Source: Escherichia coli (GTDB lineage Bacteria; Pseudomonadota; Gammaproteobacteria; Enterobacterales; Enterobacteriaceae). From it: 64,000 nucleotides of DNA. Positions 57,301-63,300 of this stretch are shown here, in pieces. Position numbers: made by a program. How positions within the stretch are numbered: the stretch's first letter is position 1; each line of letters opens with the position of its first letter. The DNA is taken from NCBI RefSeq assembly GCF_045037415.1, contig NZ_CP173438.1; one strand, given 5' to 3'.

Positions 57301-60300
57301 CATCTTGCCAGCTCCGGCTGGCCGCAGGCGCAGTGGTGGAAACAACTCAATGACCCGCAGCTGGATGCGCTGATCCAACGGACTCTAAATGGTTCACACA
57401 CCCTCGCCGAAGCGAAACTGCGGGAAGAAAAAGCGCAGTCCCAGGCCGATTTGTTAGATGCCGGTTCACAATTACAGGTCGCAGCGTTAGGGATGCTCAA
57501 CCGCCAACGCGTCTCGGCGAACGGCTTTTTAAGCCCTTATGCGATGGATGCGCCAGCACTGGGTATGGACGGGCCGTACTATACGGAAGCCACAGTCGGT
57601 TTGTTTGCCGGACTGGATCTCGATTTGTGGGGTGTGCATCGCTCAGCGGTTGCTGCCGCCATTAGCGCGCATAATGCCGCGCTGGCAGAAACCGCAGCAG
57701 TAGAGCTATCGCTGACCACGGGCGTAGCGCAGCTTTATTACAGTATGCAGGCCAGCTATCAGATGCTCGATCTGTTAGAACAAACTCGCGATGTGATTGA
57801 TTACGCGGTGAAAGCGCACCAGAGTAAAGTGGCGCACGGTCTGGAAGCGCAAGTGCCTTTCCACGGCGCGCGGGCACAGATTCTGGCGGTCGATAAACAA
57901 ATTGCTGCCGTCAAAGGGCAAATCACCGAAACGCGAGAATCTCTGCGTGCATTGATTGGCGCGGGAGCCAGCGATATGCCGGAGATCAAACCGGTGGCAT
58001 TACCGCAAGTCCAGACCGGTATTCCGGCGACACTCTCTTATGAGTTGCTCGCCAGACGCCCGGATCTGCAAGCCATGCGCTGGTATGTTCAGGCGTCATT
58101 AGATCAGGTGGATTCCGCGCGGGCGCTGTTCTATCCGAGCTTTGATATCAAAGCGTTTTTCGGCCTGGATTCTATCCACCTGGATACCTTATTCAAAAAA
58201 ACCAGTCGCCAGTTCAACTTTATCCCAGGTCTGAAATTGCCGCTGTTTGACGGTGGACGGTTGAATGCCAATCTCGAAGGCACTCGCGCCGCCAGCAACA
58301 TGATGATTGAACGTTACAACCAGTCAGTACTGAACGCGGTGCGTGACGTTGCCGTCAACGGCACACGTCTGCAAACGCTCAACGACGAGCGAGAGATGCA
58401 GGCTGAACGCGTAGAAGCAACGCGCTTCACCCAGCGCGCAGCCGAGGCCGCCTACCAACGCGGCTTAACCAGCCGCTTACAGGCCACCGAAGCCCGGTTG
58501 CCAGTGCTTGCCGAAGAGATGTCATTACTGATGCTGGACAGCCGCCGGGTGATCCAAAGCATTCAGTTGATGAAATCGCTGGGCGGCGGGTATCAGGCGG
58601 CTCCCGTCGTCGAGAAAAAATAAAATGTCTACCGCGTGATGGCTGTCACGCGGTATTTCGTTTCGTCACGTCAAAACTGACGACAGCCTGTTTTTCGTCA
58701 GAGTTTTGAATAAATAGTGCCCGTAATATCAGGGAATGACCCCAAATAAAATGTGGCATAAAAGATGCATACTGTAGTCGAGAGCGCGTATGCGTGATTT
58801 GATTAACTGGAGCGAGACCGATGAAAAAAGTCGTCACGGTTTGCCCCTATTGCGCATCAGGTTGCAAAATCAACCTGGTCGTCGATAACGGCAAAATCGT
58901 CCGGGCGGAGGCAGCGCAGGGGAAAACCAACCAGGGTACCCTGTGTCTGAAGGGTTATTATGGCTGGGACTTCATTAACGATACCCAGATCCTGACCCCG
59001 CGCCTGAAAACCCCCATGATCCGTCGCCAGCGTGGCGGCAAACTCGAACCTGTTTCCTGGGATGAGGCACTGAATTACGTTGCCGAGCGCCTGAGCGCCA
59101 TCAAAGAGAAGTACGGTCCGGATGCCATCCAGACGACCGGCTCCTCGCGCGGTACGGGTAACGAAACCAACTATGTAATGCAAAAATTTGCGCGCGCCGT
59201 TATTGGTACCAATAACGTTGACTGCTGCGCTCGTGTCTGACACGGCCCATCGGTTGCAGGTCTGCACCAATCGGTCGGTAATGGCGCAATGAGCAATGCT
59301 ATTAACGAAATTGATAATACCGATTTAGTGTTCGTTTTCGGGTATAACCCGGCGGATTCCCACCCAATCGTGGCGAATCACGTAATTAACGCTAAACGTA
59401 ACGGGGCGAAAATTATCGTCTGCGATCCGCGCAAAATTGAAACCGCGCGCATTGCTGACATGCACATTGCACTGAAAAACGGCTCGAACATCGCGCTGTT
59501 GAATGCGATGGGCCATGTCATTATTGAAGAAAATCTGTACGACAAAGCGTTCGTCGCTTCCCGTACAGAAGGCTTTGAAGAGTATCGTAAAATCGTTGAA
59601 GGCTACACGCCGGAGTCGGTTGAAGATATCACCGGCGTCAGCGCCAGTGAGATTCGTCAGGCGGCGCGGATGTATGCCCAGGCAGAAAGCGCCGCCATCC
59701 TGTGGGGCATGGGGGTAACCCAGTTCTATCAGGGCGTGGAAACCGTGCGTTCTCTGACCAGCCTCGCGATGCTGACCGGTAACCTCGGTAAGCCACATGC
59801 GGGTGTAAACCCGGTTCGTGGTCAGAACAACGTGCAGGGTGCCTGCGATATGGGCGCGCTGCCGGATACGTATCCGGGCTATCAGTACGTGAAAGATCCG
59901 GCTAACCGCGAGAAATTTGCCAAAGCCTGGGGCGTAGAGAGCCTGCCAGCGCATACCGGTTATCGTATCAGCGAGCTGCCGCACCGCGTGGCGCATGGTG
60001 AAGTGAGAGCGGCGTACATTATGGGCGAAGATCCGCTGCAAACTGACGCGGAACTGTCGGCAGTACGTAAAGCCTTTGAAGATCTGGAACTGGTTATCGT
60101 TCAGGACATCTTTATGACCAAAACCGCGTCGGCGGCGGATGTCATTTTACCGTCAACGTCGTGGGGCGAGCATGAAGGCGTGTTTACTGCGGCTGACCGT
60201 GGCTTCCAGCGTTTCTTCAAGGCGGTTGAGCCGAAGTGGGATCTGAAAACGGACTGGCAAATCATCAGTGAAATTGCCACTCGTATGGGTTATCCGATGC

Positions 60301-63300
60301 ACTACAACAACACCCAGGAGATCTGGGATGAGTTGCGTCATCTGTGCCCGGATTTCTACGGTGCGACTTACGAGAAAATGGGCGAACTGGGCTTCATTCA
60401 GTGGCCTTGCCGCGATACTTCAGATGCCGATCAGGGGACTTCTTATCTGTTTAAAGAGAAGTTTGATACCCCGAACGGTCTGGCGCAGTTCTTCACCTGC
60501 GACTGGGTAGCGCCAATCGACAAACTCACCGACGAATACCCGATGGTACTGTCAACGGTGCGTGAAGTTGGTCACTACTCTTGCCGTTCGATGACCGGTA
60601 ACTGTGCGGCACTGGCGGCGCTGGCTGATGAACCTGGCTACGCACAAATCAATACCGAAGACGCCAAACGTCTGGGTATTGAAGATGAGGCATTGGTTTG
60701 GGTGCACTCGCGTAAAGGCAAAATTATCACCCGTGCGCAGGTCAGCGATCGTCCGAACAAAGGGGCGATTTACATGACCTACCAGTGGTGGATTGGTGCC
60801 TGTAACGAGCTGGTGACCGAAAACTTAAGCCCGATTACGAAAACGCCGGAATACAAATACTGCGCCGTGCGCGTCGAGCCGATCGCCGATCAGCGCGCCG
60901 CCGAGCAGTACGTGATTGACGAGTACAACAAGTTGAAAACTCGCCTGCGCGAAGCGGCACTGGCGTAATACCGCTTAAACTCACGTTAAAAGCGGTGATA
61001 TTACCCAACGCCTTTGTATCAATCCGGAAACGACTCTCTGTTTCCGGATTTTTTTATACATACCTGCGCAGTCAAACCAGCCTATCCTGGTTATTAGCGA
61101 CGTCTTCTCGGTTGTTCTTCTATTCCAGTCACGATTGCAAATGAGAATTATCTTTACTCAATTCTCATCGCGGCCTAACGTAATAATACTTTACATTTGA
61201 TGAACCAAATTTCGGTAAGGTGAGAAATCATCGACCGTTTAACTCGTTCTATTAACGGGATATTTTGGCGCGATTAATGCAACAAAACCCCGTCTGATAG
61301 AATATTAATAACCTCAAAGTAATTTCAGGGATTGGGAAGCATATGATTAAAAAACTATTACCTTTACTGGTTTTAAGCACAATTTCCGCCACAACCGTTG
61401 CCGCTACACCGCCTAATACGTTGGTTGTAGCCCAGGGGCTGGATGATATTGTGAGCCTGGACCCGGCAGAAGCTAATGAACTCTCAAGTATTCAGACTGT
61501 ACCAAGTCTGTATCAACGCGTAGTGCAACCGGACCGTAATGATCCGACGAAAATTACTCCGATTCTGGCGGAAAGTTGGCAGGCTGACCCCGCAGCCAAA
61601 ACGCTAACCATAAAACTGAAAAGCGATGCGAAATTTGCCTCTGGTAATCCGGTACGCCCGGAAGATGTGATTTACTCTTATGTCCGGGCTGTCACACTGA
61701 ATAAATCCGGTGCGTTTATTCTCAATGTGCTGGGATGGCAGCCGGAAAATATCGCCAGCCAGTTGAAGAAAATCGATGACCATACCGTCCAGGTGCAATG
61801 GAGTGCCGACGTCAGCCCGGCTCTGGCACTGAATATTCTCTCCACACCAATCGCCTCAATTGTTGACGAGAAGCTGGTTGCGCCAAACGCCAAAAATAAC
61901 GACTTTGGTAATGAATGGCTGAAGATGCATTCCGCTGGCAGCGGCGCGTTTAAAATGCGTACTTACCAACCGCATCAGGCCATCGTGATGGAAGCCAACG
62001 CCAGCTCACCAACCGGCGCCCCGAAACTGAAAAGCGTCATCATCAAAAATGTTCCCGATCCGGCAACACGTCGCCTGCTGATCCAACAAGGTGATGCTGA
62101 TATGGCTCGTGATCTGGGAGCCGATCAAATCGATGCATTACAGGGTAAACCTGGCGTAAAAGTGATGAGCATTGCCTCCGCCGAACAGAACTACCTGGCC
62201 TTCAATACCGGTAACAAGGATAACCCGCTGATGAGTAATCCTGCGTTCTGGGAGGCCGCTCGCTGGTTGGTCGATTACGACGGCATCACCAAAAATCTCT
62301 TAAAAGGACAATATTTTACCCATCAGAGTTTCCTGCCCGTGGGCTTTCCTGGAGCACTGGAAGAAACACCGTTTACCTTTAATCCAGCCAAAGCAAAAGA
62401 GATCCTCGCTAAAGCCGGAATCAAAGACCCGCACTTCACGCTTGATGTCGAAAATAAACCGCCATTTATTACCATCGCGCAGTCAATTCAGGCCAGCTTT
62501 GCTCAGGGCGGTGTAAAAGTTGATTTGCTGCCAGCCGCAGGGAGTCAGGTCTACTCTCGCGTTCGCGCCCACCAGCATCAGGGGGCCATTCGTATGTGGT
62601 TGCCTGATTATTTTGACGCACATTCCAACGCCAGCTCTTTCGCCTATAACGATGGCAAATCCAGCACCGTTGCCGGGTTAAACGGCTGGAAAATCCCGGA
62701 ACTGAACAAAGAAACGCTGGCGGCCATCGCTGAACCTGATAGCACTAAACGTCTTGATTTGTATAAGAAAATGCAACAAGAACTACAACGTAGTTCCCCG
62801 TATGTCTTTATTGATCAAGGCAAAACGCAAATTGTCATGCGTGATAATGTGCAGGGGTATCAACAAGGGTTGAATGCCGATATGGTCTGGTTTGATCAGG
62901 TAACCAAATAACCCTGTATGCAACTCGCGTCCAGCCATGTTACCGGGCGCGGTACCAGGGCTGGCCTGTATTGCAGGCCAGCCGCTGATTTATCACTGTA
63001 TGGAAAGATCATGTCTGTCGTTTTTTCCACTCGCGCAAGATGGCGAGGCAAACGCCCTCTGCTCGCGCTGTTGCAAGGGCTGTTTACCGTTGCTCTGACG
63101 CTACTCGGCCTGCTGCTGATTACCTTTGCGCTTTCGGCTCTCTCACCGGTCGATCGCGTACTACAAATCGTTGGCGATCACGCCAGCCAGTCCACCTATG
63201 ATCAGGTACGCCACCAGTTAGGATTGGATCAGCCGTTAGCCGTCCAGTTCTGGCATTACCTGATGAATCTGGCACACGGCGATCTGGGCATCGCCAGCTC

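Follow-up and report, generated by a model that had tools for sequence, protein, structure and literature searches.

The locus at 58821–60968 of the window (the whole 64,000-nt stretch of Escherichia coli DNA analyzed here; features lie on the plus strand unless stated otherwise) is, with near certainty, an intact fdhF encoding formate dehydrogenase H (FDH-H), the formate-oxidizing subunit of the formate-hydrogenlyase complex, recoded at UGA-140 via a SECIS element. Nothing was observed that argues against this assignment. UGA/SECIS recoding in fdhF is already fully known as the textbook bacterial case; among instances of selenocysteine recoding in bacteria it is the founding one, and the locus therefore discloses no new biology.

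The coding sequence (58821–60968), for a molybdopterin- and selenocysteine-containing catalytic subunit, runs from ATG 58821–58823 to TAA 60966–60968 and spans 716 codons (715 residues plus the stop). In-frame stops occur exclusively at codon 140 (TGA, 59238–59240) and codon 716. A Shine-Dalgarno GGAG was read from the sequence at 58809–58812, 8 nt from the ATG. A mechanical ORF list reports the gene as two pieces, 58821–59240 (139 aa) and 59289–60968 (559 aa), which share a common frame, as the preliminary description had held: 59238 − 58821 = 417, or 139 codons, and (59289 − 58821) mod 3 = 0. The 48 nt separating the two calls are open, and the TGA is therefore the sole stop dividing them. 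Antisense ORFs at 58857–59270 and 59325–60041 were considered as genes and rejected, neither carrying a Pfam family.

Read through the TGA, the product aligns over residues 1–715 with residues 1–715 of PDB 1AA6, the crystallized E. coli FDH-H (713/715 identical, 1665 bits), and the TGA codon falls on residue 140 of that chain, entered as X (non-standard). The same identity, 713/715, was obtained with 1FDO, 1FDI, 2IV2 and 7Z0T, all designated formate dehydrogenase H. With Cys put in place of Sec, the product matched the TIGR01591 equivalog HMM over its full length (profile positions 1–672 of 672), scoring 1095.7 bits against a cut-off of 666.25. Its Pfam domains are ordered PF04879 (Fe4S4), PF00384 (Molybdopterin) and PF01568 (Molydop_binding), and the Molybdopterin domain spans the TGA, with profile positions 1–80 before it and 90–352 after it. 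Cys8, Cys11, Cys15, Cys42, Lys44, His141 and Arg333 are all present; the four cysteines are the [4Fe-4S] ligands, and His141 and Arg333 the catalytic residues, of the 1997 FDH-H structure. Identity of 99.7% to the characterized enzyme suggests that this FdhF would oxidize formate in the formate-hydrogenlyase complex.

The common frame, the continuous Molybdopterin domain, the TIGR01591 match and the 713/715 identity to 1AA6 together bear out the earlier view of a single gene. A rival view takes the pieces as two genes, one for a 139-aa Fe-S protein and the other for a molybdopterin protein of 559 aa whose translation starts on its own at ATG 59289; exactly these two products appear in many public gene calls. 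We regard such an arrangement as practically excluded: the split would cut one Pfam domain in two, the enzyme in the solved structure is one chain of 715 residues that takes in both pieces as well as the 16 residues lying between, ATG 59289 has no Shine-Dalgarno-like sequence before it, and the separate database entries come from gene callers in which Sec is not modeled.

The single fdhF frame contains a SECIS element at 59233–59287 (codons 138–156), which matched Rfam RF01988 (SECIS_2, the enterobacterial fdhF type) over model positions 1–55 of 55 at 87.1 bits, the gathering score being 70 (E = 1.4e-18), and without notable difference from the family. The match was recovered again in a scan of the whole window; an overlapping SECIS_3 match was weaker and under threshold (35.8 bits, gathering score 63). 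In the minimum-free-energy fold, pairs extend over 59240–59279 and an outer helix joins 59233–59237 to 59283–59287, in agreement with the SECIS_2 model structure, every consensus pair being formed. A hairpin previously placed directly downstream of the TGA, at 59241–59286, is thus correct to within a few bases. At its apex lies the 17-nt minihelix GGUUGCAGGUCUGCACC (59252–59268), which starts 11 nt after the UGA (the base following the UGA is C) and has a single bulged U17 at 59254 (U18 in an alternative register) and a 4-nt GGUC loop with G23 at 59260 and U24 at 59261. These features correspond to published determinants for SelB, namely an apical stem-loop of 17 nt (nt 15–31) located 11 nt from the UGA with a bulged U17 and loop G23/U24 (PMC8659212), from which its SelB-binding role is assigned.

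Folding energy was rejected as evidence for the element. Four spans were folded, one of them on the reverse strand, and every z-score lay between −0.05 and −1.3: the three forward spans gave −0.05, −1.23 and −1.28, unexceptional for composition, with 18–83 of 200 shuffles folding as well, and the antisense strand folded comparably against its own shuffles (z = −1.04). The preliminary description had proposed a stable hairpin as a check; the hairpin does fold, but the check has little power, as shuffled sequences are nearly as stable (z about −1.2). The specific evidence for the SECIS is the covariance-model match.

We also considered whether UGA-140 is read mainly by a standard tRNA (near-cognate Trp or Cys) with no involvement of the selenocysteine machinery. 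This is very improbable, given the non-standard residue at position 140 in the crystal structures, the intact SelB determinants, the presence of tRNA-Sec and the selenium requirement for efficient UGA recoding noted in PMC4513850. According to the same paper, the fdhF fragment from K-12 (residues 130–179 with Sec140) is the standard recoding reporter, with 30–40% recoding in vivo. Literature on the K-12 sequence likewise suggests that SelB binding and selenium-dependent read-through would operate at UGA-140 here. A tRNA search of the 64-kb window returned none. The tRNA-Sec gene (selC) was found at 45439–45533, with 100% identity, in E. coli strain SK1144 (NZ_AP018784.2), a strain separated from the window by 5 differences in 64,000 bases; of 5426 E. 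coli genomes, 5424 contain the gene.

Of 5426 complete E. coli genomes, 5419 carry the fdhF locus; near-identity to these annotated genomes and to a solved structure settled which gene it is. A 121-nt segment with the TGA and SECIS (59200–59320) equals K-12 base for base, and 5419 of 5420 records match it with at least 99% identity. Cross-genus comparison covered a single contig each from Citrobacter and Raoultella (90% and 84% nucleotide identity over the gene, respectively), no encoding contig being on record for the 559-aa pieces of Klebsiella and Enterobacter, and disclosed an identical minihelix in both; 59252–59268 was unchanged in all six sequences compared. Over the SECIS codons, third-position differences numbered 1 in Citrobacter (median 4) and 2 in Raoultella (median 5), low but not extreme values falling in the lowest 9–15% of windows. 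Within E. coli all of the first 524 nt of fdhF are strongly conserved, with 1 difference from K-12, so purifying selection specific to the SECIS is inseparable here from general conservation.

These comparisons bear on a further reading, in which fdhF is a pseudogene and the TGA an inactivating nonsense mutation; at face value the ORF list does describe a premature stop and a 139-aa product. We consider this highly improbable. The same TGA occupies codon 140 in K-12, in the divergent E. coli strain 14EC007, in Citrobacter and in Raoultella, no sense codon being seen there, and its surroundings show the near-invariance given above. The 575 codons past it are open and 99.7% identical to the crystallized enzyme, with no decay seen, and a SECIS above the Rfam gathering score lies right after the stop.

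The gene is preceded by a sigma-54 (−24/−12) promoter, GTGGCATAAAAGATGCA, at 58753–58769, with GG at 58755–58756 and GC at 58767–58768. Within it, TGGCATAAAAGATGCA at 58754–58769, already named as a sigma-54 promoter in the preliminary description, is the window's sole match to TGGCAYN5WTGCW; the motif is of the TGGCA-N7-TGCA type with GG and GC 12 nt apart, and it is directed at fdhF, 52 nt before the ATG. Such a match is expected 0.56 times per 64 kb by chance, and 38 of 100 shuffles contained at least one. The pattern alone is not statistically rare; what gives the motif weight is where it lies, together with its identity to a site mapped by experiment: the 17-mer is the same as OS41, the MG1655 sigma-54 ChIP-seq site upstream of fdhF (PMC4591121). 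The motif is likewise unchanged in K-12, strain 14EC007 and Citrobacter. By the rule of PMC4591121, transcription is predicted to start at 58780, 19 bp downstream from the center of the motif (58761), giving a 41-nt leader (58821 − 58780 = 41) in agreement with the 41 bp tabulated there from predicted start to fdhF. In Salmonella, the fdhF site TGGCATAAAACATGCATA showed ChIP-chip binding, the microarray table for sigma-54 lists an expression ratio of 29, and fdhF is classed as FhlA-activated (PMC3844500). The formate-regulon promoters (hyc, hyp, hydN-hypF and fdhF) have in common the −24 GG and −12 GC, sigma-54 occupancy and FhlA as the listed activator. On the strength of this literature, fdhF of the window would be occupied by sigma-54 in vivo and depend on FhlA.

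Between the promoter and the upstream gene mdtP (stop at 58623), a repeat block at 58653–58710, 70–127 nt upstream of the predicted start, is probably the FhlA enhancer (upstream activating sequence). It contains direct repeats TTTCGTCA at 58661 and 58693, the pair GTATTTCGT and GTTTTTCGT at 58653 and 58690, and an inverted repeat (58671–58678 with 58702–58709). The repeats are conserved, and the sub-block 58662–58710 shows one substitution in about 50 nt against the Citrobacter contig, despite a different upstream neighbor gene there. The published 16-nt palindromic FhlA consensus, CATTTCGTACGAAATG, has no match here with up to 3 mismatches, only TTTCGT-type half-site repeats being found, and the enhancer assignment is accordingly inferential. 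The upstream limit of this control region is the intrinsic terminator of mdtP at 58630–58665, formed by a perfect 10-nt inverted repeat (58630–58639 with 58646–58655) and a T-rich tail.

Known biology and the literature suggest the following course of expression. Transcription would begin near 58780 from the sigma-54 promoter and would require FhlA, a formate-responsive enhancer-binding protein, probably acting on the repeats at about 58653–58710. With UGA-140 in the A site, the SECIS hairpin, which starts at the UGA, would stand just downstream of the ribosome; its minihelix would bind the specialized elongation factor SelB with Sec-tRNA(Sec) and GTP, and SelB would bring selenocysteine to the UGA, replacing termination by release factor 2. 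Ribosomes failing to insert Sec would terminate, leaving a 139-residue fragment. Sec140 is the active-site molybdenum ligand, adjoining His141 and Arg333. A more speculative and, in our view, rather unlikely extension is that UGA-140 and the SECIS also act as a selenium checkpoint on the transcript: at low selenium or Sec-tRNA, release of most ribosomes at codon 140 would leave about 1.7 kb of untranslated mRNA behind RNA polymerase, and Rho-dependent polarity would lower the 3′ part of the fdhF transcript. Polarity of this kind is reported for a selenoprotein fdhF in Treponema primitia (PMC3892789).

K-12 fdhF (b4079) is the same gene, alike in its 715 residues, Sec140, Fe-S ligands, His141/Arg333, SECIS, sigma-54 promoter and upstream mdtP. 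The two copies differ at 35 nt (1.6%), with two substitutions, K289E and A390V. Their 3′ flanks diverge: K-12 homology stops at 60973, 5 nt past the fdhF stop, and an ABC-transporter cassette with another terminator takes the place of the K-12 terminator–yjcO junction. This intrinsic terminator (61021–61057; a 12-bp stem followed by a T-run) is unlike that of K-12 and is specific to strains with the downstream cassette. On the speculative selenium-checkpoint reading, read-through into the cassette could also differ in this lineage, as the junction replaces the K-12 terminator. The other E. coli selenoprotein formate dehydrogenases FdnG and FdoG (PDB 1KQF), of about 1015 aa, are periplasmic, Tat-exported and regulated by sigma-70/NarL. 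They share with FdhF the Mo-bisPGD superfamily and Sec as Mo ligand but are distant in sequence: 1KQF matched with 157 bits over residues 2–248 only, and the TIGR01553 score was 248 bits, where the cut-off is 814.

The annotation of the locus varies with the pipeline. It had been predicted that any automated annotation would mis-call fdhF as two genes or a pseudogene; this is true of naive gene callers, which split it, but not of RefSeq, which carries one CDS of 2148 nt; the feature tables of three records flag neither a pseudogene nor a join. With one exception, every listed RefSeq record names the product 'formate dehydrogenase H subunit alpha, selenocysteine-containing' or 'formate dehydrogenase subunit alpha'. 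Sec-blind pipelines, in turn, still deposit fdhF as two proteins at large scale: at least 1000 public contigs carry the exact 139-aa piece and at least 1000 the exact 559-aa piece, and their 90%-identity clusters hold 2,374 and 11,377 members, respectively. Split calls of this kind would be repaired by a scan that looks for an in-frame TGA together with an Rfam SECIS match and a protein domain running on past the stop, and fdhF here would serve well as its positive control. The exception is a naming slip in one RefSeq record, H23, in which fdhF is labeled as the 'N' enzyme.

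The fdhF gene is organized as one open frame of 716 codons on the + strand (58821–60968), which begins with ATG, ends with TAA and contains on translation no stop other than the terminal codon and the TGA at codon 140 (59238–59240). The mechanical ORF list divides this span on the + strand into a 139-aa piece (58821–59240) and a 559-aa piece starting at the first ATG after the TGA (59289–60968), and the 48 nt separating the two calls are open, with zero extra stops. Both pieces lie in the same frame, as a preliminary description of the locus had claimed, and its frame arithmetic is correct (59238 − 58821 = 417 = 139 codons). 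With Cys substituted at residue 140 for protein searches, the product scored 1095.7 bits against the equivalog model TIGR01591 (cut-off 666), and residues 1–715 aligned with two substitutions to PDB entries 1AA6, 1FDO, 1FDI, 2IV2 and 7Z0T (formate dehydrogenase H), in which position 140 is the non-standard residue X. Cys8, Cys11, Cys15, Cys42, Lys44, His141 and Arg333 are all in place. The Pfam Molybdopterin domain is broken by the TGA alone, with profile positions 1–80 in the first piece and 90–352 in the second. Two independent genes are therefore excluded, since one domain crosses the stop and the solved structure is a single chain.

The recoding signal was identified as an end-to-end match to the Rfam family SECIS_2 (RF01988) at 59233–59287 (87.1 bits; gathering score, 70; E = 1.4e-18), overlapped by a sub-threshold SECIS_3 match. 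The minimum-free-energy fold agrees with the model structure and comprises, on the + strand, an outer helix (59233–59237/59283–59287), a lower stem between 59240, the A of the UGA, and 59279, and an apical stem capped by a GGUC loop. Numbered from the U of UGA-140, nt 15–31 (59252–59268, +) form a 17-nt minihelix located 11 nt past the UGA, with a bulged U17 (59254) and loop residues G23/U24 (59260/59261); a review gives such spacing and residues as requirements for SelB binding (PMC8659212). Folding energy per se is undistinctive: three spans gave z-scores against shuffles of −0.05, −1.23 and −1.28, the antisense strand one of −1.04. The hairpin proposed after the TGA is borne out by the model match and fold, whereas the presence of a stable hairpin discriminates little given these weak z-scores; the real evidence for the SECIS is the match to a structure-plus-sequence model.

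Matches to the locus occur in 5419/5426 complete E. coli genomes, and mdtP lies upstream of it. Several of these match the 2.5 kb around fdhF at 100% identity, and strain SK1144 (NZ_AP018784.2, 4507324–4571323) differs from the whole 64-kb window at 5 positions. Over the whole 2.5 kb, the 95–99% identity band holds 4424 records; the 121 nt spanning the TGA and SECIS show at least 99% identity in 5419/5420 E. coli records and are base-identical in K-12. The sole divergent record, strain 14EC007 (96.7% over the 121 nt), carries four changes, all at third positions and none within SECIS nt 1–40, one of which turns an outer-helix U–G pair into C–G. Orthologues of 2148 nt, with codon 140 as the only internal stop, were found in one Citrobacter contig and one Raoultella genome (90% and 84% nucleotide identity, respectively). 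Their minihelix is identical and their SECIS changes are all synonymous; A33 is replaced by G in both, with pairing to U13 retained as a wobble, and A12 by U in Raoultella, with loss of one middle-stem pair. A pseudogene is excluded, since the TGA is retained in different strains and genera, the frame downstream is intact and the structure has been solved. Third-position divergence over codons 140–153 is 1 against a gene median of 4 in Citrobacter (lowest 15% of windows) and 2 against 5 in Raoultella (lowest 9%), a weak signal from two genera that is no more than suggestive. The first 524 nt of fdhF are nearly invariant within E. coli in comparison with K-12, so that SECIS-specific constraint is not isolable from these data. 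K-12 fdhF differs from that of the window at 35 nucleotides, with the substitutions K289E and A390V; these look conservative and, with the 3′ junction, are the only strain-specific features of the locus.

According to the literature, the SECIS would recruit SelB–GTP–Sec-tRNA. No tRNA genes were found within the 64-kb window; SK1144 carries tRNA-Sec at 100% identity to the query, whose identity is confirmed by the RefSeq label 'tRNA-Sec', and the gene occurs in 5424/5426 E. coli genomes. PMC4513850, whose construct is the fdhF fragment for residues 130–179, reports recoding in vivo by ~30–40% of ribosomes, with termination by RF2 in those that fail. The structure, as well as the dependence on selenium described in that study, contradicts read-through of UGA-140 chiefly without Sec. 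Work on the K-12 allele has already included 75Se labelling or LC-MS/MS of FDH-H, mutation of the UGA or of U17 or G23, and deletion of selC, selB, rpoN or fhlA.

Upstream of fdhF, TGGCATAAAAGATGCA (58754–58769) is the sole −24/−12 pattern match in the window, against a chance expectation of 0.56 matches per window. The 17-mer GTGGCATAAAAGATGCA at this promoter is exactly the sequence of OS41, a sigma-54 ChIP-seq site of MG1655 assigned to fdhF, for which the table predicts a start 41 bp upstream of the gene (PMC4591121); the same rule places the predicted transcription start in the window at 58780, 41 nt 5′ of the ATG. In Salmonella, ChIP-chip shows binding at the fdhF site TGGCATAAAACATGCATA, and the sigma-54 microarray table gives the gene an expression ratio of 29 and FhlA as its activator (PMC3844500). 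The −24/−12 motif is unchanged across K-12, 14EC007 and Citrobacter. A search with the 16-nt FhlA consensus CATTTCGTACGAAATG, as quoted in PMC4987338, allowing up to three mismatches, returned no match at fdhF, a classic FhlA target. The region 58653–58710 holds TTTCGTCA direct repeats (58661 and 58693; TTTCGT(CA) type) and an 8-nt inverted repeat, and its sub-block 58662–58710 shows one substitution in ~50 nt relative to Citrobacter, despite a different upstream gene there; judged from sequence, 58653–58710 is probably the FhlA enhancer. No alignment was obtained between the region upstream of Raoultella fdhF and the sigma-54/enhancer region of E. coli, and the Raoultella gene may therefore differ in regulation or represent a paralogous locus. 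In Raoultella ornithinolytica, the Sec-containing fdhF copy has a xanthine/uracil permease gene on one side and genes of the molybdenum-hydroxylase type on the other.

The exact 139-aa and 559-aa products each occur on at least 1000 contigs, and their 90%-identity clusters hold 2,374 and 11,377 members, respectively. On the Citrobacter metagenome contig, the gene is called as exactly these two pieces; in the Raoultella GenBank assembly, the 559-aa piece alone is called. RefSeq gives one 2148-nt CDS, whose product is called, among the records listed, either 'formate dehydrogenase H subunit alpha, selenocysteine-containing' or simply 'formate dehydrogenase subunit alpha', and none of the three RefSeq feature tables fetched carries a pseudogene or join flag on fdhF. 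The expectation that any automated annotation would mis-call the gene is therefore overstated, although callers lacking a selenocysteine model do split it. The central finding of the preliminary description is accurate, fdhF being a textbook and already known case of bacterial selenocysteine insertion; its remaining value is that of a positive control for annotation methods that allow for recoding. One RefSeq record (NZ_AP045061.1; compared with window 59200–59320) names the product 'formate dehydrogenase N subunit alpha, selenocysteine-containing' under the symbol fdhF, a product-name slip. Among matches to window 58600–61100, 4/5420 lie on plasmid-labelled records and one genome holds two copies, which either mis-assignment of replicons or genuine duplication may explain.

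Homology of K-12 to the window ends at 60973, 5 nt past the fdhF stop, where a five-gene ABC-transporter cassette absent from K-12 begins; positioned between fdhF and yjcO, it spans 60974–64000, runs past the window end and encodes a family-5 solute-binding protein (SBP_bac_5; 61343–62911), two permeases and two ATPases. The cassette occurs in 1043/5426 complete E. coli genomes, and the fdhF terminator in the window (61021–61050) differs from that of K-12. At the other end, SK1144 annotation places an S6-family autotransporter serine peptidase at 1–3697 (−) and then, at 4098–7949, a hypothetical protein together with chaperone/usher fimbrial genes; positions 1–7949 are accessory, pathotype-associated content beside the core genes dcuSR, dcuB and fumB. 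Rfam gathering-level matches also include the sRNA STnc630 (26571–26736, −; 182 bits), which overlaps pmrR and the 3′ end of pmrB. The REP-derived nucleoid-associated RNA naRNA4 is likewise matched at this level, in two copies (32404–32481, +; 34958–35037, −) on either side of the yjdM to phnD region.
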